From Chromatiales bacterium (GTDB lineage: Bacteria > Pseudomonadota > Gammaproteobacteria > CAMYNG01): a DNA stretch of 33,721 bases. This document shows, piece after piece, positions 10,787 through 25,709 of this stretch. The position numbers and the translations under genes were made by a program. Numbering within the stretch: the stretch's first letter is position 1; the number at the start of each line of letters is the position of its first letter. The notes below the pieces were generated by a model. That model did no database searches. It was given only the letters and a program-made list of their open reading frames with translations, and had not been told where the DNA came from. Location of the stretch: assembly GCA_027021685.1 (NCBI GenBank), contig JALUTW010000332.1, positions 1 to 33,721 on the forward strand, given 5' to 3'.

Positions 10787-10823
10787 ATAGCTGTTTCGTG
10801 GGGTGCGGGCGGAGTCCAGCGGC

Positions 10824-12077
10824 ATGAAGGAGAGGGTCAAGGTCTTCGCCGAAGATCTCGCCCGCGGCATGTTCGTGTGCGAGCTGGACCGGCCGTGGCT
10901 GGAATCCCCCTTCCTGTTCCAGGGTTTCCGCATCGAGACCGACGACGAGCTGGCGCAGCTGCGCGAAACCTGCCAGTACGTGTTCGTGGACGTGGAGCAG
11001 TCCAGCGACGAGGTGGTGCCACGCCTGCTCCAGCGGGCGGGACCGTCTCCGCCGCCACGGGCACCCCGCCGCTCCGGTTCACCCGGGGACCGGAACGAGG
11101 GCCTGGATCGGGCCCAGTTTCACGCCGAGCTGAAGCGGGCGCGCGGCCGCTACGACGAGACCCGCGCCTTCATCGTCCGCGCCCTGGAGGACAGCCGCCT
11201 GGGCCGCACCGTGGACTCGCGCGAGGCCTGCCGGCTGGTGGGGGAGCTGGCCGAGAGCATCGTGCGCAACGCCAATGCGCTGGTCTGGCTCACCCATCTC
11301 AAGAGCCGCGATGAGTACACGGTGACCCACTGCATCAATGTGTGCATCCTGGCGCTGGCCTTTGGCCGCTTCCTCGGCCTCGAGCGGGGTGCCCTGGAGA
11401 CCGTGGGTCTGGGCGCGCTGCTGCACGACCTGGGCAAGATGCGGATCCCGCCCGAGGTGCTGCACAAGCCGGGACGCCTCACCGCCGAGGAGTTCGATCT
11501 CATCAAGACCCACCCGGTGTGGGGCCACCAGATCCTGGCCGGGGCGCCCGGGCTGACGGGCGAGATCCTCGACATCGTCCGCCATCACCACGAGCGGCTG
11601 GATGGCCGCGGCTACCCCGACGGCCTGGCGGCGGAGCAGGTGGGGCTGTATACGCGCATCGTCTCCATCGTCGACATCTATGACGCCGTCACCTCGGACC
11701 GGGCGTACCGGGACGGGATCCCGCCCCACGAGGCGCTCAAGAACATCTATGACTGGGCGCCCGAGGGCCTCGACGAGGAACTGGTGGCGGCGTTCATCCG
11801 CTGTCTCGGCATCTATCCCATCGGCTCCCTGGTGGAGCTGGCCAGCGGCCACGTGGGCGTGGTGGTCCAGTCCAACCCGAAGCACCGCCTGCGGCCCGTG
11901 GTGCTGCTGGTGCTCAACCGGCGCAAGGAACCCTACGCCCGGCGCAAGCTCCTCAACCTGGCCTCGCCACGCTGGGAGGGCGAGGCGGAGCGGCCCGAGA
12001 TCGGCCGCATCCTCGGCCGCGGCGCCTATGGCCTCGATGTGCGCCGCATCATCGAGGCCGAGTGCCGGCTGGCCTGA
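10824..12077 (+). CDS. HD-GYP domain c-di-GMP phosphodiesterase with an N-terminal DUF3391-like region
   Basis: Contains HDLGK and HHERLDGRGYPDGL (HD and GYP motifs). I prefer ATG 10824 to the GTG at 10803. Confidence 0.9.
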   Translation: MKERVKVFAEDLARGMFVCELDRPWLESPFLFQGFRIETDDELAQLRETCQYVFVDVEQSSDEVVPRLLQRAGPSPPPRAPRRSGSPGDRNEGLDRAQFHAELKRARGRYDETRAFIVRALEDSRLGRTVDSREACRLVGELAESIVRNANALVWLTHLKSRDEYTVTHCINVCILALAFGRFLGLERGALETVGLGALLHDLGKMRIPPEVLHKPGRLTAEEFDLIKTHPVWGHQILAGAPGLTGEILDIVRHHHERLDGRGYPDGLAAEQVGLYTRIVSIVDIYDAVTSDRAYRDGIPPHEALKNIYDWAPEGLDEELVAAFIRCLGIYPIGSLVELASGHVGVVVQSNPKHRLRPVVLLVLNRRKEPYARRKLLNLASPRWEGEAERPEIGRILGRGAYGLDVRRIIEAECRLA

Positions 12078-14071: not shown

Positions 14072-16606
14072 ATGGCCCAGCGGGATGCCGCAGGCGGCGG
14101 GCCGGCCCGGCGGCGGGTGGCGAGCCTGCGCCGGCGCTATCTGGTCGTGGCCGGACTGCTCATCGTGGCAGTGGCGGTGTGCATCGGTGCCACCCAGTAC
14201 TATCTGAGCCGGGTGGGCGAGGCCGGCTTTCGCCACATCGCCCAGCGGGCCGCGGTGACCCGCGAGCTGCTCCACGCCAAGAACGCCCTGGTCCAGGCCC
14301 GGGACCTGCTGGACCTCTACCTGCTCTCGCCCTCGGCCCGTTACCGCGAGGCCTTCCATGTCGCGCTCAACGATGCCGAGGCGGCGGTGGCCCGGCTGGC
14401 CGGCCTGGAGTGGGTGCACGAGATGGGCCTGGCCGACGCGGTGAGGGCCCTGGCGCCGCAACTGGCGAGCCTGCACCAGCGCGGCGATCAGCTCATGAGC
14501 GTGCGCCTCGATGCGGTGGCCATGTATCCCGCCATGCGCCTGGCCAACGGCCGCATGCTGGCCGCCAACCGGGCCATCGCCTCGGCCCTGGAGCTGGCCA
14601 TCGTCGAGGCCCGCGAGGAGGACGACGGCGCCACCGAGACCCTGCTGGTGGAGACGCGCAACACCTGGAACCGGCTCATCAGTGCCTACCGCCTGTATCT
14701 CATCAACCGCCTGGGTTCGCTGTTCGAGGATGCCCTCCCCGGGCAGCTGGGCGACGTGGAGACTCTCTACGCCCAGCTCGACGGCCAGCTCCGGCGTCTG
14801 GCCGCGGTCCGGCGGGCCGGCCGCCTGGGCCTGCAGGGTGAGGAAAGCGTCGAGACCCTGCTGCGGCTGGCGCCGCAATGGTACCGGGACTACCAGGTGG
14901 TGGTGGGCATCAACAGCGGCGAGACCTGGCGCGGGGACGTTCCGCTCATTCGCGACATCATTCAGCCCGGTTTCCGCCACCTGCGCGAGCACCTGGGACG
15001 GCTGGACCGCCGGCTCAGCGAACATGCCCAGGCGGACGTGGTCGCCCAGCAGCAGGCAGTGCAGCTCAGCGGCTACGTGTTGTGGCTGCTGGCCGCCTTC
15101 ATCGCCCTGGTGGTGGCCGGGGGGTACCGGACGTTTTCCCGCCGTCTGCTGGCGCCGGTGGCCCAGGTGGTGCGCCAGCTTCACGCCGAGGCCGGCGGTC
15201 GCGGCGGCGGGGCCCTGCCGCCCGCGGACACGGCGGAGGTGCAGGCCCTGGTGAGCGCCTTTGCCCAGATGCGCGACCAGGTGCACCGCCGGCAGCGGGC
15301 GCTGGAGTACCAGGCCCTGCACGACGATCTCACCGGGCTGCCCAACCGCACCCTGCTCCAGGACCGGCTGCAGCGGGCGATGCTGGCGGCCCACCGCGAT
15401 GGCACCGGCCTGGCCCTGGTCCTGCTGGATCTCAACCGGTTCAAGGAGATCAACGACACCCTGGGCCACCAGGCGGGGGATCGCCTGCTGCAGCAGGTGG
15501 CCGCGCGCCTGGCCGGAACCCTGCGCGAGAGCGATACCGTGGCCCGGCTGGGGGGCGACGAGTTCGCCATGGTCCTGCCGGAGATCCGGCGCGAAGGTGT
15601 GGAAGCGGTGGCGCGCAAGATGCTGGAGGCGCTGGAGGAGGTGTACGCGGTGGAGGACCACCGTCTCTATATCGGCGCCAGCCTGGGCATCGCCCTGTAT
15701 CCGGAGCACGGTACCACCACCGAGGAACTCATGCGCCATGCCGACGTGGCCATGTACCTGGCCAAGCGCTCCAACAGCGGCGTCGCCGTGTACGAGGCCG
15801 AGCGCGACCGGCACAGCGTGGGCCAGCTGGCCCTGCTGTCGTCACTGCGCCGCGCGCTGGAAAGCGGGCAGATGGAACTCCACTACCAGCCCAAGGTGGC
15901 CGCGGGCGGCGGCACGCTGATGGGGTTCGAGGCGCTGCTGCGCTGGCACCATCCCGACCGGGGCCTGGTGCCGCCGGACGAGTTCATTCCACTGGCGGAG
16001 CAGACCGGACTCATTCGCAAGCTGTCGCGCTGGGTGGTGGACCGGGCCCTGGAGCAGTCCCGCCGCTGGCAACGGGCGGGCACGCCGGTGCCGGTGGCGG
16101 TCAACCTGTCGGTGTGGGATCTCCAGGATGCCGACTTTCCCGCCTGGGTCGAGGAGCGGCTCCGGCACTGGGATGTCGGTGCCGGGCACCTGGAGCTGGA
16201 GATCACGGAAAGCGCCATGATGCTGGAGCCCGAGCGGGCCCACGAGGTGGTGGCGGCCCTGGCGGGCCTGGGCCTGCGGGTCTCCATCGACGACTACGGG
16301 GCCGGTTTTTCCTCCCTGGCCTACCTCAAGCGCCTGCGCCTGGCGGCGCTCAAGATCGACAAGTCCTTCGTGCTGGACATGCTCTCCAACGAAAACGACG
16401 CCATCATCGTGCGTTCCACCATCGACCTGGCCCACAACCTGGGGCTCAAGGTGGTGGCCGAGGGTGTGGAGGACGGCGAGACCGCGGCCCTGCTGGAGGC
16501 GCTGGGCTGCGACCTGTTGCAAGGTTTCTACATCGCGCGGCCGGCCGCCGCCACCGAGGTGGAGGCGTGGATGGCGGCGCGCCCGGCCAGGGCGACCAAC
16601 GCCTGA
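14072..16606 (+). CDS. membrane sensor diguanylate cyclase/phosphodiesterase (TM - periplasmic helical domain - TM - HAMP - GGDEF - EAL)
   Basis: 844 aa with two hydrophobic segments. It has RESD (I-site-like RxxD) 5 residues before GGDEF. EAL motifs are intact: EALLRW, DDYGAGFSSL, KIDKSF, EGVED, QGFY. AAGGGGGA lies before ATG 14072. Confidence 0.92.
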   Translation: MAQRDAAGGGPARRRVASLRRRYLVVAGLLIVAVAVCIGATQYYLSRVGEAGFRHIAQRAAVTRELLHAKNALVQARDLLDLYLLSPSARYREAFHVALNDAEAAVARLAGLEWVHEMGLADAVRALAPQLASLHQRGDQLMSVRLDAVAMYPAMRLANGRMLAANRAIASALELAIVEAREEDDGATETLLVETRNTWNRLISAYRLYLINRLGSLFEDALPGQLGDVETLYAQLDGQLRRLAAVRRAGRLGLQGEESVETLLRLAPQWYRDYQVVVGINSGETWRGDVPLIRDIIQPGFRHLREHLGRLDRRLSEHAQADVVAQQQAVQLSGYVLWLLAAFIALVVAGGYRTFSRRLLAPVAQVVRQLHAEAGGRGGGALPPADTAEVQALVSAFAQMRDQVHRRQRALEYQALHDDLTGLPNRTLLQDRLQRAMLAAHRDGTGLALVLLDLNRFKEINDTLGHQAGDRLLQQVAARLAGTLRESDTVARLGGDEFAMVLPEIRREGVEAVARKMLEALEEVYAVEDHRLYIGASLGIALYPEHGTTTEELMRHADVAMYLAKRSNSGVAVYEAERDRHSVGQLALLSSLRRALESGQMELHYQPKVAAGGGTLMGFEALLRWHHPDRGLVPPDEFIPLAEQTGLIRKLSRWVVDRALEQSRRWQRAGTPVPVAVNLSVWDLQDADFPAWVEERLRHWDVGAGHLELEITESAMMLEPERAHEVVAALAGLGLRVSIDDYGAGFSSLAYLKRLRLAALKIDKSFVLDMLSNENDAIIVRSTIDLAHNLGLKVVAEGVEDGETAALLEALGCDLLQGFYIARPAAATEVEAWMAARPARATNA

Positions 16607-19281: not shown

Positions 19282-21069
19282 ATGCGCACCCACTACTGCG
19301 GGGAGCTTCGCCCCGACCACATCGACGAGGAGACGACCCTCTGTGGCTGGGTGCACCGCCGGCGCGATCACGGCGGGGTGATCTTCATCGACCTGCGCGA
19401 TCGCAGCGGGCTGGTGCAGGTGGTCTACGACCCCGACCGGCCCGAGGTCTTCGCCGAGGCCGAGCGGGTGCGGTCGGAGTACGTGCTGCAGGTGCGCGGC
19501 CGCGTGCGCCGGCGGCCGGCCGGCACCGAGAACCCGGACCTGCCCACGGGCGAGGTGGAGGTTCTGGGCCACGATCTGGTGGTGCTCAACCGGGCCGAGA
19601 CCCCGCCGTTCCAGCTCGACGACGACTCGGTGTCCGAGGAGCACCGCCTGCGCTTCCGCTACATCGACCTGCGCCGGCCCGAGATGTACCGGCGCCTGGC
19701 CCTGCGCTCGGCCATCACCCGCGAGTTGCGCCGGTTCCTCGACGATCACGGCTTCATCGACATCGAGACCCCCATGCTCACCAAGGCCACGCCCGAGGGG
19801 GCGCGCGACTACCTGGTGCCCAGCCGCACCCATCCCGGCAGCTTTTTCGCCCTGCCGCAGTCGCCGCAGCTGTTCAAGCAGCTGCTCATGATGTCCGGGG
19901 TGGATCGCTACTACCAGATCGTGCGCTGCTTCCGCGACGAGGACCTGCGCGCGGATCGCCAGCCCGAGTTCACCCAGCTGGACATCGAGACCTCGTTCAT
20001 GGACGAGGACGCCATCATGGCCCTGATGGAAGCCATGCTGCGCCAGGTCTTCGCCCGGGTGCTGGAGGTGGCGCTGCCCGATCCCTTCCCGCGCATGACC
20101 CACGAGGAGGCCCTGCGCCGCTACGGAACCGACAAGCCCGACCTGCGCATTCCGCTGGAGCTGGTGGACGTGGCCGACCTGGTGCGCGATGCCGATTTCA
20201 AGGTCTTCGCCGGACCGGCCGCCGACCCCGCCGGGCGGGTGGCGGCGCTGCGCCTGCCGGGCGGCGGCAGCCTGACGCGCAAGGAGATCGATGACTACAC
20301 CGCCTTCGTCGGCGTCTACGGGGCCAGGGGCCTGGCCTATATCAAGGTCAACGACGTGGCGGCGGGCCGGGAGGGACTGCAGTCACCCATCCTCAAGTTC
20401 CTGCCCGATGCGGCCGTCGACGGCATCCTCCAGCGCACCGGCGCCGCCGACGGCGACCTCATCTTCTTCGGTGCCGACAAGGCGCGGGTGGTCAACGAGG
20501 CCCTGGGCGCGCTGCGGGTGCGCCTGGGCCACGACCGCGGCCTGCTGGAGCCCGGCTGGCGTCCCTTGTGGGTGGTGGATTTTCCCATGTTCGAGTGGGA
20601 CGAGGAGGGCAGGCGCTGGGTGGCCCTGCATCACCCCTTCACCTCGCCCCGGGAGGAGGACCTGGAGCTCCTGCACACCGATCCCGGCCGCTGCCGCTCG
20701 CGGGCCTACGACCTGGTGCTCAACGGCACCGAGGTGGGGGGCGGGTCCATGCGCATCTACCGCAAGGAGGTGCAGCAGGAGGTGTTCCACCAGCTGGGCA
20801 TCGATCGCGAGGAGGCGGTGGAGAAGTTCGGCTTCCTGCTGGATGCCCTCAAGTACGGCTGCCCGCCCCACGGCGGCATCGCCTTCGGCCTCGATCGCCT
20901 GGTGATGCTCATGACCGGCGCCGCCTCCATCCGCGAGGTCATGGCCTTTCCCAAGACCCAGACCGCCGCCTGCCTGCTCACCCGCGCCCCGGCGCCGGTG
21001 AGCGAGACCCAGCTGCGCGAGCTGCACATCCGCCTGCGGCCGCCGCCCAAGGATTCCGCCAGGGGTTGA
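19282..21069 (+). CDS. aspS: aspartate--tRNA ligase
   Basis: 595 aa with class II motifs [25 protein letters not shown] and AFGLDRLVM. Confidence 0.97.
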
Positions 21070-21227
21070 GCCCGGCTCATGTCGGGGCCCCTTGCAGCCG
21101 ATATAGGGGCCTGAAAGCGACAAGGCTTGCCCCCGGGGGAGGCGGCCGGTAACATCCTAGGTTTCTGATTTCACGGAACTTTTGTCCGGGGCAGCGCCCC
21201 GGTGGCGACCGGGGCGGCGGCACGCGA

Positions 21228-23753
21228 GTGAGACAATACTGGAAATCGGACTGGTTCATCGGTCTGCTGGTGGCCCTGGCGTTCCTCGCCCTGTCCGCCG
21301 CCGGCGGACTGGAGACCCTGGAGTGGAAGGTCTACGACCTCGGAGTACGCTTCTCCTCGGCCCGTCCGGCCAGCACCGAGGTGGTGGTGGTGGCGGTGGA
21401 CGATTCCTCGCTCCAGGCCCTGGGGGCCTGGCCCTGGCCCCGGGACATGCTGGCCCGGGTGGTGGCCCGGATCAGCGCCGCCCGGCCCCGGGCCATCGGC
21501 CTGGCCCTGCCCCTGGACACCCGCCAGAGCACCCGCGGGCTGGAGTACATCAAGGCCCTGCGCGAGGTGTTCCGCCGCAACTGGGGGGCCACCGGGGACT
21601 CCATCAAGCGCCTCCTGCGCCAGGCCGAGACCGGCCTGGACACCGACCGGGTGCTGGCCGAGGCCCTGCAACGGGCCCGCGGCGTGGTGCTGGCGCTGCC
21701 CTACCGCAGCGGTGAGGCGGCCACGGGCGGGACCCCGGTGGAGCTGGGCCCGGAGGTGGGCGCCCGCCTGCTCCACAACGTGACCGGCGAAACGGACGGT
21801 GGCTGGTGGCGGCGGCTGCGCGGCATGGGCGTGCCCGAGGCGACGGTGGTCTATCCGCCCCTGCCCGAGTTCGCGCGCCACAGCCGGGCCGTGGGGCATT
21901 TTCCCGCCTTCGCCGACAGCCGGCCCAACGCCCGCTACGAACCCCTGGTGCTGCGCTACGGGGAGCACTACATCCCGTCCTTTTCCCTCGTGCTGGCGGC
22001 CCTGGCCCAGGGGCTGAAGCCCTCCGACCTCAAGGTGGACCTGGAGCGGGGCGTGGCGACCCTGGGCCGCACGGCACTGCCCAGCGACGGCCGCCTGCGG
22101 GTCTACCCCTATTTCTACTCGCGGCGCGAGGGCCGGGCCGCCTTCGCCCAGTATTCCATCCGCGACGTGTTCCGGCGCAAGGTGCCGGCCCGGGCCTTCC
22201 GCGGCAAGACCGTGATCATCGGCCTGGTGGCCAGCCAGCAGGTGATCCCGCTGGAGACCCCGGTGGGGCGCCAGCCGCCGGTGCTGGTGGCGGCGCACAC
22301 GGTCTCGGCCCTGCTCAACGGGGACCTCTACCGGCTGCCGCCCTGGGCCGGGGGCCTGCGCCTGGGCCTGCTGGCCGTGGTGGCGCTGTACCTCATGTTC
22401 GCCCTGCCGCGGTTCCGCATCGGCACCGGGCTGGCGCTGTCCATGCTGCTGCTGTTCGCGCTGCTCAACGTCCATTTCATTCTCATGATCTCCCAGTCCC
22501 TGTGGCTGCCGCTGGCGCTGCCCATGCTGGCGCTGGTGGTGGGGCACGGCGTGCTCGGGGCCAAGCACCTGCTGGAGGAACGCCTGGGGCGGGTGCGCTC
22601 GGAGCTGTCCGAGGCCAACCGCATGCTGGGCCTGTCGTTCCAGAGCCAGGGCCAGCTCGACATGGCCTTCGACAAGTACCGCCAGTGCATCGTGGACGAG
22701 CCGCTGCTGGACCAGCTCTACAACCTGGGCCTGGACTACGAGCGCAAGCGCCAGTTCAACAAGGCCGAGTCGGTGTTCAAGTACATCCTCAGCCACCGCG
22801 AGAAGTTCCGCGACGTGCAGGAGCGCCTGTACCGCAACAAGGAGATCTCCCAGGCCTTCGCCCTCGGGACCTCCAGCGCCGGCAACGGCAACAGCACCCT
22901 GATCCTCCACACCACCGGCATCCAGAAGCCCATGCTGGGCCGCTACCAGATCGAAAAGGAGCTGGGCCGCGGCGCCATGGGCATGGTCTACCTGGGCCAG
23001 GATCCCAAGATCGGCCGCACCGTGGCCATCAAGACCATGAGCCTGTCGCAGGAGTTCGAGGGCGAGAAGCTGGACGACGTGCGCAAGCGTTTCTTCCGCG
23101 AGGCCGAGACCGCGGGCCGGCTCAACCATCCCAACATCGTCACCATCTACGACGTGGGCGAGGACCAGGAGCTGGCCTATATCGCCATGGACTACCTCAA
23201 GGGCGAGTCGCTGCTCGCCTACTGCAAGCCGGACAAGCTGCTGCCCGCGCCGGAGGTCTTCGACCTCATGATCCAGGTGGCCGAGGCCCTGGACTACGCC
23301 CACAGCCAGAACGTGGTCCACCGCGACATCAAGCCCGCCAACATCATGTATGACCGCGAATCGGGCAGTCTCAAGGTGACCGACTTCGGCGTCGCCTGCC
23401 TCACCGATGCCAGCAAGACCAAGACCGGCACCATCCTGGGCAGCCCCTCGTACATGTCGCCCGAGCAGCTGGCGGGGAAGAAGGTGGACGGGCGCTCGGA
23501 TCTGTTCTCCCTGACCATTACCTTCTATCAGCTGCTGACCGGCGAGCTGCCCTTCATCGGTGAATCGCTGGCCAGCCTGATGTACAAGATCGCGAACGAG
23601 AAGCACCCGGACGTGCGCATGTTCAGGCCCGACCTGCCGTCCTGCGTGAGCAAGATCATCAACAAGGGGCTGCACAAGGATGTCGAGCGGCGGTTCCAGT
23701 CGGGACAGCAGATGGCCAATGCGCTACGGCGCTGCCGCGAGCGCCTGGAGTGA
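21228..23753 (+). CDS. CHASE2 sensor domain-containing serine/threonine protein kinase
   Basis: 841 aa from GTG 21228. Order of domains: N-terminal TM; CHASE2-like extracytoplasmic region; three hydrophobic helices (about residues 365-440); TPR-like segment; C-terminal Hanks kinase with GRGAMGMVY, VAIK, HRDIKPANIM, DFG and SPSYMSPE. Confidence 0.9.
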   Translation: MRQYWKSDWFIGLLVALAFLALSAAGGLETLEWKVYDLGVRFSSARPASTEVVVVAVDDSSLQALGAWPWPRDMLARVVARISAARPRAIGLALPLDTRQSTRGLEYIKALREVFRRNWGATGDSIKRLLRQAETGLDTDRVLAEALQRARGVVLALPYRSGEAATGGTPVELGPEVGARLLHNVTGETDGGWWRRLRGMGVPEATVVYPPLPEFARHSRAVGHFPAFADSRPNARYEPLVLRYGEHYIPSFSLVLAALAQGLKPSDLKVDLERGVATLGRTALPSDGRLRVYPYFYSRREGRAAFAQYSIRDVFRRKVPARAFRGKTVIIGLVASQQVIPLETPVGRQPPVLVAAHTVSALLNGDLYRLPPWAGGLRLGLLAVVALYLMFALPRFRIGTGLALSMLLLFALLNVHFILMISQSLWLPLALPMLALVVGHGVLGAKHLLEERLGRVRSELSEANRMLGLSFQSQGQLDMAFDKYRQCIVDEPLLDQLYNLGLDYERKRQFNKAESVFKYILSHREKFRDVQERLYRNKEISQAFALGTSSAGNGNSTLILHTTGIQKPMLGRYQIEKELGRGAMGMVYLGQDPKIGRTVAIKTMSLSQEFEGEKLDDVRKRFFREAETAGRLNHPNIVTIYDVGEDQELAYIAMDYLKGESLLAYCKPDKLLPAPEVFDLMIQVAEALDYAHSQNVVHRDIKPANIMYDRESGSLKVTDFGVACLTDASKTKTGTILGSPSYMSPEQLAGKKVDGRSDLFSLTITFYQLLTGELPFIGESLASLMYKIANEKHPDVRMFRPDLPSCVSKIINKGLHKDVERRFQSGQQMANALRRCRERLE

Positions 23754-23785
23754 CGTGAACCGGAACCGACGATGAAGCGGGGAAC

Positions 23786-24574
23786 ATGATTTTGAAGGCA
23801 GCCTTTCACGGTCTCACGGACGTGGGCCTCATGCGCGAGCACAACGAGGACAGCATCCTGTGGGACACCGACCTGGGGATGGCCCTGCTGGCCGACGGCA
23901 TGGGTGGCCACAATGCCGGCGAGGTGGCCTCGGCCATGGCAGTGGAGCAGGTCCGGGCGGCCCTGCGCGAGGCCTTCCTCGCCCGCGACTGTGAGGAGAA
24001 GGCCGACTGCAGCGAGGTGGTGCGCCAGGCCATCCACACCGCCAACCAGCGCATCTGGGACGCCTCGCAGGAGAATACCGAGTGCGCCGGCATGGGAACC
24101 ACCCTGGTGCTGGCCCTGCTGCACGACGGCGACATGGTCACCGCCCACGTGGGGGATTCCCGTATCTACCGCCTGCGTGACGGCGTGCTGGAGCAGATCA
24201 CCTCCGACCACTCGCTGGTCCAGGAGCTGGTGGACAACGGTTACCTCAGCCAGGAGGAGGCGAAGCTGTCGGTGAGCCGCAACCTCATCACCCGGGCCCT
24301 GGGCATCGGGGCCGAGGTGGAGGTGGAGGTGAGCCAGGAACCGGCCCAGCCCGGCGACCTCTACCTGTTGTGCTCCGACGGGCTGTCGGACATGGTCACC
24401 GACTCCGAGATGGGGGCCATCCTGCAGGAGCCGGATCCGGACCTGGACGAGACCGCCCGGCGCCTGGTGGACCTGGCCAACCGCAAGGGCGGAAACGACA
24501 ATATTTCCGTGATCCTCATGACGGTCCGGGAGGCCTTCTCGGATGACAAGGGATTGACCGATTCGGTAGGATAG
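23786..24574 (+). CDS. PP2C-family Ser/Thr protein phosphatase
   Basis: 262 aa containing REHNEDS, ADGMGGH, GDSR, LCSDGL and GGNDNIS. Confidence 0.9.
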   Translation: MILKAAFHGLTDVGLMREHNEDSILWDTDLGMALLADGMGGHNAGEVASAMAVEQVRAALREAFLARDCEEKADCSEVVRQAIHTANQRIWDASQENTECAGMGTTLVLALLHDGDMVTAHVGDSRIYRLRDGVLEQITSDHSLVQELVDNGYLSQEEAKLSVSRNLITRALGIGAEVEVEVSQEPAQPGDLYLLCSDGLSDMVTDSEMGAILQEPDPDLDETARRLVDLANRKGGNDNISVILMTVREAFSDDKGLTDSVG

Positions 24575-24578
24575 ACCC

Positions 24579-25271
24579 ATGGCGAAGCTGATTCTGGTGC
24601 ACGAGGGGGCGGTGATCCGCGAGTATCCGCTGGACAAGGAGCGGGTCACCATCGGCCGCAAGCCCTCCAACGACATCCAGCTGGACGACCCCACGGTCAG
24701 CGGCCAGCACGCGGTGGTGCTGACGCTCCAGAACGTCTATGTCGAGGACCTGGGCAGCACCAACGGCACCCTGCTCAACGGCAAGCGCATCAACAAGCAG
24801 ATGCTCAAGCACGGGGACGTGGTGCGCATCGGCCGCCACGAGTTCCGGTTCGTGGACGAGCGCGCGGCCGACTTCGACAAGACCATCGTCATCTCGCCCG
24901 GCGCCGTCCCGCCGCCCCCGCCGCGGCCGGCGGCCGGTCCCGGCGTCACCCGGCCGGAAGGGGCGGCCCCGCCGCCGGCCCAGCCCGCCAGGGGCCGCAG
25001 CGCCATGGTCAAGGTCATCAGCGGTCCCAAGACGGGGCAGAACATCGTTCTCAACAAGCCCTATACCACGCTGGGCTCACCCGGGGTGCAGGTGGCGGTC
25101 ATCGCCCGGCGCGGGACCTCCTATTATCTGATGCCCATGGGCGGCATCGGGCAGCAGGACAACCCGCCGCGTCTCAACGACAAGGCGGTGGGGGCCCAGA
25201 GCCTGCCGCTCAAGGAGGGCGACGTCATCGAGGTGGCGGGCAGCAAGCTCCAGTTCACCCTCAACGGCTGA
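24579..25271 (+). CDS. FHA domain protein (N-terminal FHA, Pro-rich linker, C-terminal FHA-like domain)
   Basis: 230 aa. Contains TIGRKPSNDIQLDDPTVSGQHA...[13 protein letters not shown]...RIGRHEFRF. The linker is PPPPPRPAAGP. The C-terminal approx. 90 aa have a degenerate FHA-like pattern. The start lies 4 nt after the phosphatase stop. Confidence 0.85.
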   Translation: MAKLILVHEGAVIREYPLDKERVTIGRKPSNDIQLDDPTVSGQHAVVLTLQNVYVEDLGSTNGTLLNGKRINKQMLKHGDVVRIGRHEFRFVDERAADFDKTIVISPGAVPPPPPRPAAGPGVTRPEGAAPPPAQPARGRSAMVKVISGPKTGQNIVLNKPYTTLGSPGVQVAVIARRGTSYYLMPMGGIGQQDNPPRLNDKAVGAQSLPLKEGDVIEVAGSKLQFTLNG

Positions 25272-25281
25272 GGGCGGGGCC

Positions 25282-25641
25282 ATGGCGCGTCTCGTGCTCA
25301 GCCACGCCGGGGTGGTCCTCAAGACCTACGAGCTGGAGAAGGAATCCACCAGCATCGGCCGCCGCAGCGGGGCCGACATCCAGCTCGACGACGCCGTGGT
25401 GAGCAGCCAGCACGCCCGCGTGTTCCGCGTGCCCAGCGATTACCTGGAAGGTCACTACGATTACTGGATCGAGGACCTGGGCAGCACCAACGGCACCGTG
25501 GTCAACGACAAGAAGATCACCCAGCCGGTGATGTTGAAGAACGGTGACACCGTGCGCATCGGCCGCCACCGGTTCACCTTCGACTCGGGGCAGGGCACCG
25601 GCCACGAGCAGACCGCCATCTACCTCCCCGACAGCGATTGA
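25282..25641 (+). CDS. FHA domain protein
   Basis: 119 aa containing [22 protein letters not shown]...[13 protein letters not shown]...RIGRHRFTF. It is a close paralog of the N-terminal domain of the preceding gene. Confidence 0.85.
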
Positions 25642-25709
25642 GGGGCCGCCCCGCGGCCGTTGCAGGCAGACGTTCCAACCCCGCAGGACTTTCGGAGCAG
25701 GTTCCAGTC

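Follow-up and report, generated by a model that had tools for sequence, protein, structure and literature searches.

We found a four-gene cassette (positions 21228-25641) between aspS and yebC in a stretch of DNA from an uncultured Chromatiales bacterium (GenBank assembly GCA_027021685.1, contig JALUTW010000332.1, here C332; the whole stretch that was analyzed, 33,721 nt in length, is referred to as the window). The four genes are co-directional and encode a Hanks-type Ser/Thr kinase with a CHASE2 receptor domain, a PP2C-type Ser/Thr phosphatase, and two proteins with FHA domains (FHA1 and FHA2). Their host genome (G000) is a metagenome-assembled genome (MAG) of 2.67 Mb in 537 contigs, with a GC content of 70%, and its placement in the Gammaproteobacteria agrees with its named relatives. 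Judging from gene order and orthology, the operon is a cyclase-free derivative of a widespread cassette that combines a CHASE2 kinase, a PP2C, and a tandem-FHA protein, often together with a CHASE2 adenylate cyclase and a phosphodiesterase, and it has gained FHA2. Our reading, to which we assign a combined probability of roughly 70%, is that the cassette is a vertically inherited Ser/Thr phospho-signaling operon that would act as a phospho-relay. We hold the identity and evolutionary history of the operon with high confidence; for the relay, which is deduced from conserved residues, the odds are about even.

Predicted proteins of the operon

The genes are separated by gaps of 32, 4, and 10 nt, and the domains named above were recognized by Pfam in all four products (Table 1). 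Both the tight packing and the domain assignments had been proposed in an initial annotation made from the sequence alone; direct reading of the sequence bears out the former, and the Pfam matches bear out the latter.

For the kinase, Pfam assigns CHASE2 (PF05226; 143 bits against a cut-off of 26.3) to residues 16-385 and Pkinase (188.7 bits against 31.7) to residues 573-827, and a TPR_2 match at residues 497-523 lies below the Pfam threshold. The AlphaFold (AF2) model, with a predicted local distance difference test (pLDDT) score of 89.8, places a transmembrane (TM) helix at residues 8-25, a mixed alpha/beta periplasmic CHASE2 domain at approximately residues 29-370, three TM helices thereafter (374-395, 398-423, and 430-473), four short helices (477-545), a disordered segment (546-563), and the kinase domain (573-840). 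This layout, in which an N-terminal TM helix, a periplasmic CHASE2 domain, and three TM helices precede the output domain, is that of CHASE2 receptors. The four short helices agree with the TPR-like linker described in the initial annotation, and this module is among the best-conserved stretches of the kinase in the ortholog alignment. The Hanks catalytic residues (G580-x-G582, K602, H698-R-D700-x-K702, N705, D719-F-G, and P745-E) show no or almost no variation among 59-85 orthologs, and T731 and T733 in the activation loop do not vary in the same comparison. In the disordered linker, T557 starts a T-L-I-L motif, with Thr at this position in 57/85 orthologs and a hydrophobic residue at +3. On the evidence of these motifs and the model, the Hanks catalytic core of the predicted protein is intact and is preceded by a periplasmic CHASE2 sensor and a TPR-like juxtamembrane module. 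A second CHASE2 kinase, a paralog with 41-43% identity and without adjacent PP2C or FHA genes, is present in two other genomes of the family (G004, contig C96; G005, contig C90) and was not found in the host genome.

The phosphatase matches the Pfam families PP2C_2, PP2C, and SpoIIE, and scores 270.6 bits with the Stp1/IreP model NF033484 (cut-off 230). With the DGMGGH and GG-D-N motifs readable in its sequence, it is identified by profile and motif as a Stp1-type PP2C.

FHA1 is composed of a canonical FHA domain (residues 1-95; Pfam FHA, 89.5 bits), a D-F-x-K-T102-x-V-[IL] motif, a variable Pro-rich disordered linker, and a degenerate FHA-like domain (approximately residues 140-230). The residues of the phosphothreonine (pThr) pocket (G26, R27, S41, H44, N62, and G63) are invariant in 48 orthologs, as in a pThr reader, and T102 reaches a conservation of at least 90% in the same set. 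The AF2 model (pLDDT 87.7) contains two beta-sandwich domains. In a fold search with the whole model, the closest PDB folds were the FHA domains of GarA, OdhI, EmbR, FhaA, and Bdellovibrio DgcB, all of which match the N-terminal domain; the C-terminal domain was assessed by profile-profile comparison (hhalign). The latter aligns with the N-terminal domain at 98% probability (E = 1.5e-13), in an alignment that shows the Arg/Ser/His loop to be deleted, and because it lacks Arg, Ser, and His, it does not qualify as a pThr reader. These profiles and models describe FHA1 as a predicted combination of one canonical pThr-binding FHA domain and one degenerate FHA domain.

FHA2 (Pfam FHA, 78 bits) consists of one FHA domain, into which a loop is inserted, and a C-terminal tail; it has the same pThr-pocket residues as FHA1. 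Its tail in the window ends in E-Q-T111-A-I-Y-L-P-D, and the C-terminus x-T-A-I-[YL]-[LI]-P-D is present in 9/9 orthologs. A tree of FHA heads groups the FHA2 sequences in a single clade (starred support value, 99) that is nested with FHA1 heads of the same lineage (95, also starred), which points to one tandem duplication; by this phylogenetic evidence, FHA2 arose from the FHA1 head by duplication within this lineage. Together with the conserved Thr tail, FHA2 resembles by analogy the GarA/OdhI switch. The description of two FHA proteins in the initial annotation is thus right for the presence of FHA domains in both and incomplete in two respects, namely, the second, degenerate FHA domain of FHA1 and the Thr tail of FHA2.

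Age, spread, and surroundings of the insertion

We surveyed the junction in one genome per family for 150 families of the class, in which aspS, yebC, and the kinase gene were located. In 82 of the 94 same-contig cases, yebC directly follows aspS on the same strand at a distance of no more than 9 kb, and the gap is 500 bp or shorter in 32 of these 82 pairs. Gap lengths range from 8 bp to approximately 9 kb (loci L125-L138), and the other gaps are filled by genes that are unrelated in different families, namely, those for NUDIX, NadA, an alpha/beta hydrolase, an SSF transporter, or an M1 peptidase. Because the aspS-yebC pair is ancestral and the gap between its genes is variable, the cassette is an insertion; the frequency of the pairing in the class also supports the earlier proposal of a conserved aspS-yebC-ruvCAB-tol block into which the cassette is inserted.

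The cassette was found in 6/6 genomes of the GTDB order, which comprise one family, and it is intact between aspS and yebC in five of these. In the remaining genome (G002, single contig C1; L017 and L142), it is split at the 3′ end of the kinase gene and the 5′ end of the PP2C gene, with the two halves 330 kb apart (aspS-kinase at approximately 847 kb; partial PP2C-FHA1-FHA2-yebC-ruvCAB at approximately 1177 kb). Runs of N occur at both loci, and the split may be a rearrangement or a scaffolding artifact. The four-gene form is also found at the aspS-yebC junction in three further families (G100, G112, and G120), and a three-gene form is found there in G030 and G144. The kinase tree unites all four-gene junction copies and two unplaced MAG contigs in one starred clade.

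The GC content at third codon positions (GC3) is 0.91-0.95 in the cassette compared with 0.90-0.96 in the flanks, and synonymous codon use is equal to that of the flanks. The total GC content falls to 0.64-0.69 across the cassette, which is due to the first and second codon positions (GC1 and GC2), i.e., amino acid composition, and not to GC3. Given the match in GC3 and codon use, the presence in 6/6 genomes of the order, and the occupation of the same site in further families, the insertion is not recent. As reconstructed from these genomes, a forerunner shared by several gammaproteobacterial families acquired the cassette at the aspS-yebC junction, probably once, and its descendants have retained it there, with losses or more than one gain required. 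The initial annotation had implied an accessory, recently inserted module. The comparison of GC3 and codon usage that it proposed found no difference from the flanks, which leaves the insertion standing and removes its recent date, as does the cassette's presence throughout the order and in three more families. It had also held that the same four genes at this junction throughout the order would mark the module as ancestral, and this is largely the pattern observed, with one of the six genomes having a split cassette in a gapped assembly. In Gammaproteobacteria, the aspS-yebC junction is an insertion site of long standing.

The kinase family is very widespread, with at least 600 matches in a pattern scan of 185,579 species genomes. 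The loci considered here are the best 80 of the matches listed, and these belong to Gamma-, Beta-, and Zetaproteobacteria, Desulfobacteraceae and relatives, Nitrospirota, Terriglobia, and Elusimicrobiota. Among them, the genes for the kinase, PP2C, and two-domain FHA1 follow each other in the same order in 52 of the 66 named loci with at least 1.8 kb of downstream sequence (kinase identity 35-57%), an order that the window shares. The recurrence in 52/66 independent loci indicates that the arrangement is not due to chance, and the triad spans at least five phyla (Pseudomonadota, with gamma, beta, and zeta members; Thermodesulfobacteriota; Myxococcota-labeled MAGs; Nitrospirota; Acidobacteriota; and Elusimicrobiota).

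Where at least 4.5 kb of downstream sequence is available (53 loci), a CHASE2 class III adenylate cyclase follows in 22 and a class-II phosphodiesterase-like metallo-beta-lactamase (MBL) protein for cyclic AMP (cAMP) is present in 20. The linked cyclase keeps its metal-binding Asp residues and a Lys/Thr specificity pair, which, in class IIIb cyclases, points to ATP as the substrate. The output of the cassette in these relatives is most likely cAMP. No CHASE2 class III cyclase or MBL-type cyclic nucleotide phosphodiesterase was found in the window. The initial annotation had named no partners that would explain the role of the pathway, and it had set a linkage elsewhere to a known, explanatory system as evidence against its view. 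The former holds in that partners from the type VI secretion system (T6SS), other secretion systems, and cell division are absent from the window by Pfam and neighbor analysis; elsewhere, the triad is linked to the CHASE2 cyclase and the phosphodiesterase-like gene, which is largely a linkage of the latter kind. The window shows the triad to be a self-sufficient unit that persists long in evolution without a cyclase. In 18 betaproteobacterial loci, the cassette is followed by a gene for a GAF-MshEN-T2SSE ATPase of the type found in pilus or secretion motors (e.g., L030:14598-17006), and sucCD and a TerC gene precede it.

The spacers on the two sides of the cassette (158 bp upstream and 68 bp downstream) and the hairpin behind FHA2 read as in the initial annotation. 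Upstream, a promoter-like element was recognized by its conservation: the TTGC-CC and TA-CAT bases are invariant in five aligned family genomes, in which the remaining spacer diverges. The element matches 8/12 consensus bases, which is below the threshold of the promoter scan, and it suggests that the cassette has its own promoter. The block adjoining it, CCTAGGnTTCTGATTT, could be a transcript start or an operator. Downstream, a GC-rich stem of differing sequence is found at the position of the hairpin in four of the five aligned family genomes (the window, G001, G004, and G005), and the spacer between FHA2 and yebC varies from 68 bp to more than 200 bp in the family. Neither an intrinsic terminator nor a sigma-70 promoter was found at the scan threshold in either spacer, and the hairpin was not called. 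With no T-run in the hairpin and a short spacer of 68 bp, read-through into yebC is possible. The spacers have no Rfam match at E values up to 1, by which a structured RNA or riboswitch was rejected, and no integrase, tRNA, or repeat boundaries were found in them.

Table 1. Features at and around the cassette (positions in the window).
Feature	Position	Strand	Basis and remarks
aspS	19282-21069		Pfam
Promoter-like element, TTGCCC-N17-TAACAT	21127-21155	+	73 nt upstream of the kinase start; alignment of five family genomes
Conserved block, CCTAGGnTTCTGATTT	21156-21171	+	Directly after the -10-like hexamer; nearly invariant in five family genomes
CHASE2-receptor Hanks Ser/Thr kinase, 841 aa	21228-23753	+	Pfam
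PP2C-type Ser/Thr phosphatase, 262 aa	23786-24574	+	Pfam and NCBIfam
FHA1 adaptor, 230 aa	24579-25271	+	Pfam
FHA2, 119 aa	25282-25641	+	Pfam
Hairpin, GGCCGC-CCC-GCGGCC	25644-25658	+	2 nt past the FHA2 stop codon; no T-run
yebC	start 25710		Downstream: ruvC, ruvA, ruvB, then tolQ, tolR, tolB

An open reading frame of 834 aa on the minus strand (21171-23675), antisense to the kinase gene, was rejected as a gene, since such shadow frames are typical of DNA with 70% GC; clusters of similar shadow frames also turned up in the neighbor analysis. Two genes for enzymes of cyclic di-GMP metabolism lie 5-10 kb upstream of the cassette, encoding an HD-GYP-type protein (DUF3391 and HD_5; 10803-12077) and a GGDEF-EAL protein (14072-16606). 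Between these and the cassette are genes for an ABC transporter, a DsrE/DUF1614/SDR operon, fmdB, and aspS.

Possible relay, outputs, and alternatives

In the relay that we propose, an envelope or periplasmic signal at the CHASE2 domain would switch the kinase on, and the kinase would autophosphorylate T731 and T733 in the activation loop and T557 in the linker. The canonical FHA heads would dock on the pT-x-x-[ILV] sites of the kinase, which would phosphorylate T102 of FHA1 and T111 in the tail of FHA2. The phosphorylated motifs of these two proteins could then be bound, in the manner of GarA/OdhI, either in cis or in trans, with the release or recruitment of targets, and the PP2C would reset the pathway. 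The degenerate FHA domain of FHA1 may be the partner-binding end, and the partner in relatives is probably the CHASE2 cyclase. The conserved juxtamembrane module and the repeated T-x-x-[ILV] motifs offer testable phospho-sites.

Several observations weigh against a vertically inherited operon with such a relay, and they concern both of its parts. For the relay, the five candidate phospho-acceptor sites (T557, T731, T733, T102, and T111) are taken from conservation only. T557 is not universal among the 85 orthologs, and a second linker motif, E-T-V-I-L, has Thr in 51/85 orthologs and Ala in the host genome. Moreover, no ortholog of the linked CHASE2 cyclase was found in the host genome or in the five other genomes with the cassette at this junction, such that the link to cAMP is not simply transferable to this host. 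For the history of the operon, the three-gene form of G144/L028 falls outside the main junction clade of the kinase tree. In a host tree of five flanking proteins, in which deep branches are poorly resolved, all carriers fall into one weakly supported group and are interleaved with cassette-free families; for example, G114, in which aspS and yebC are separated by 19 bp, is sister to G030. This interleaving and the placement of G144 require losses or a second gain.

The host genome has other genes that bear on its phospho-signaling. Its sole other CHASE2 protein is a 741-aa CHASE2 cyclase on contig C313 (L118:1-5645), the gene of which adjoins those for NHL-repeat and FecR-domain proteins and is divergent from that of a Crp-type cyclic nucleotide-binding regulator. 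This cyclase was considered as an ortholog of the linked cyclase and rejected, since an identity of 28-29% marks it as a paralog. A 322-aa fusion of an FHA domain and a class III nucleotide cyclase, which may be a pThr-gated cyclase, is encoded on contig C220 (L113:386-1354, minus strand) and has orthologs with 50-56% identity in G100, G120, and G144. With its presence in three of the five junction genomes and no copy found in G112 and G030, it was rejected as a constant partner of the cassette. An ortholog of the linked phosphodiesterase (46% identity) is found on contig C266, where it is unlinked to the cassette and located beside ffh. In total, the genome has at least five Hanks kinases and 10 FHA matches. 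Other modules consist of a kinase and a PP2C (C501), a kinase, a PP2C, and an FHA protein (C217), and a kinase and an FHA protein (C84), and the phosphothreonine network appears rich for a small genome of 2.7 Mb.

These genes are central to an alternative that is compatible with the phospho-signaling operon proposed above and that we consider possible though not probable, in which the cassette still feeds cAMP signaling through unlinked cyclases, namely, the C220 fusion, which would dock on the phosphorylated kinase, and the C313 CHASE2 cyclase. That the triad is accompanied in many relatives by genes for a CHASE2 cyclase and a phosphodiesterase is in line with such a link, as are the fusion and its orthologs, the CHASE2 cyclase beside a Crp-type regulator, and the phosphodiesterase ortholog in the host. 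However, the C313 cyclase is distant from the linked cyclases, two cassette carriers appear to lack the fusion, and the abundance of kinases and FHA domains in this genome makes any pairing a guess. A broader proposal, which we regard as speculative and doubtful, is that a previously undescribed system spanning several phyla uses the tandem FHA/pseudo-FHA protein to couple a CHASE2 kinase to a second output, which would be cAMP in most proteobacterial carriers; in the clade of the host, the cyclase would have been lost and the GarA-like FHA2, with a phosphorylatable C-terminal tail, added, with control passing to another target, possibly the FHA-cyclase fusion or YebC. Control of the neighbors YebC, RuvCAB, or AspRS by threonine phosphorylation is improbable as the role of the cassette. 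Its adjacency to yebC-ruvCAB is retained in at least six families, and read-through across the short downstream spacer would suit a shared role, but the triad occurs in dozens of loci with other neighbors and without yebC or aspS, adjacency inside one clade can be explained by plain inheritance, and the length of the yebC spacer is variable even within the family.

It is very improbable that the cassette is a recently acquired accessory island in a housekeeping block. The variable gap with unrelated genes in other families and the dip in total GC content would both be expected of such an island; however, the dip is confined to GC1 and GC2, the site is shared by all six genomes of the order and three further families, the kinase tree tracks the host lineages, and the spacers have none of the boundary features searched for. 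Scarcely credible is an anti-phage kinase module (PD-T4-6, Stk2, or MADS-like) or a T6SS threonine-phosphorylation pathway, which is suggested by matches of the kinase domain to the PADLOC models PD-T4-6 and mad6 and by weak matches of the FHA domains to TagH. The PADLOC matches cover the generic kinase core only (residues 565-838), with no match for the FHA proteins, and the TagH model TIGR03354 gives 49.9 bits against a cut-off of 120.25. Furthermore, no T6SS or defense genes are located nearby, where the neighbors are aspS, yebC, ruvCAB, and tol genes, and a periplasmic sensor at a conserved housekeeping site is ill-suited to a defense island. A vertically inherited phospho-signaling operon is the reading that we retain. 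It changes no major concept, and the window represents a natural variant of the cassette with what may be an added GarA-like switch.

Comparison with known systems

Triads of kinase, PP2C, and FHA proteins have been well characterized in Actinobacteria and in the control of the T6SS. To our knowledge, their signals and targets are unknown in most Proteobacteria, and no ligand has been established for a CHASE2 domain acting alone. In the open-access literature, we found no paper on a kinase/PP2C/FHA/cyclase cassette; the search gave only catalogs of cyanobacterial kinases and work on Sinorhizobium meliloti cyclases, which are discussed below.

In the mycobacterial and corynebacterial system of PknB (or PknG), PstP, FhaA/FhaB, and GarA/OdhI, a Hanks receptor kinase, a PP2C, and FHA readers are likewise encoded together, and GarA, OdhI, EmbR, and FhaA are the closest structural matches of the FHA domains in the cassette. 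The sensor of the PknB system is PASTA, whereas that of the cassette kinase is CHASE2; the PknB/Stk1 PASTA model NF033483 gives 301 bits, below its cut-off of 450, and aligns with the kinase core alone. FHA2 is, like the self-binding GarA/OdhI switch, a one-domain FHA protein with a conserved Thr motif, but this motif is N-terminal in GarA and OdhI (ETTS) and C-terminal in FHA2, such that the likeness would be in the way of working only. With the GarA/OdhI equivalog model NF041660, scores of 61.8 and 53.3 bits were obtained against a cut-off of 200. The tandem layout of a canonical and a degenerate FHA domain belongs to FHA1 of the cassette, to which no cell-wall or tricarboxylic acid (TCA) cycle genes are linked.

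The PpkA-PppA-Fha1 system of Pseudomonas aeruginosa follows the same logic of receptor kinase, PP2C, and FHA protein; it differs from the cassette, which has no T6SS genes and stays below the cut-off of the TagH/Fha1 model. PpkA senses through a periplasmic vWA domain rather than CHASE2. In Bdellovibrio DgcB, an FHA-GGDEF protein (PDB 6HBZ and 6HC1), the FHA domain binds a phosphorylated tail and gates a second-messenger enzyme. Its FHA domain matches the FHA1 head, and the protein is a precedent for the FHA-cyclase fusion of the host genome; DgcB has a different output enzyme, and no enzyme is fused to the FHA proteins of the cassette.

For the receptor, CHASE2 Ser/Thr kinases have been cataloged in cyanobacteria (PMC2176072), and the combination of CHASE2 and Hanks domains is thus already known. 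These proteins have the same architecture, with CHASE2 at the N-terminus; the likeness is one of architecture, and no operon with PP2C or FHA genes has been described for them (PMC2176072). CyaD1, CyaD2, and CyaK of S. meliloti are CHASE2 receptor adenylate cyclases, for which the signal, the plant protein uL2, is sensed via the outer-membrane protein NsrA (PMC13001267), and we found no other CHASE2 receptors with an investigated signal route in the open-access literature. They share with the cassette kinase the CHASE2 sensor and the three TM helices, but their output is a cyclase instead of a kinase, and no PP2C or FHA partners have been described (PMC13001267).

The cyclase cassette of Beta- and Gammaproteobacteria has an orthologous kinase, PP2C, and FHA1 (42-50% identity) in the same order, and it shares the TPR-like module and the Thr motifs. 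Compared with this cassette, the operon in the window has FHA2 in addition, has no cyclase or phosphodiesterase gene in the operon, and occupies a fixed site between aspS and yebC.

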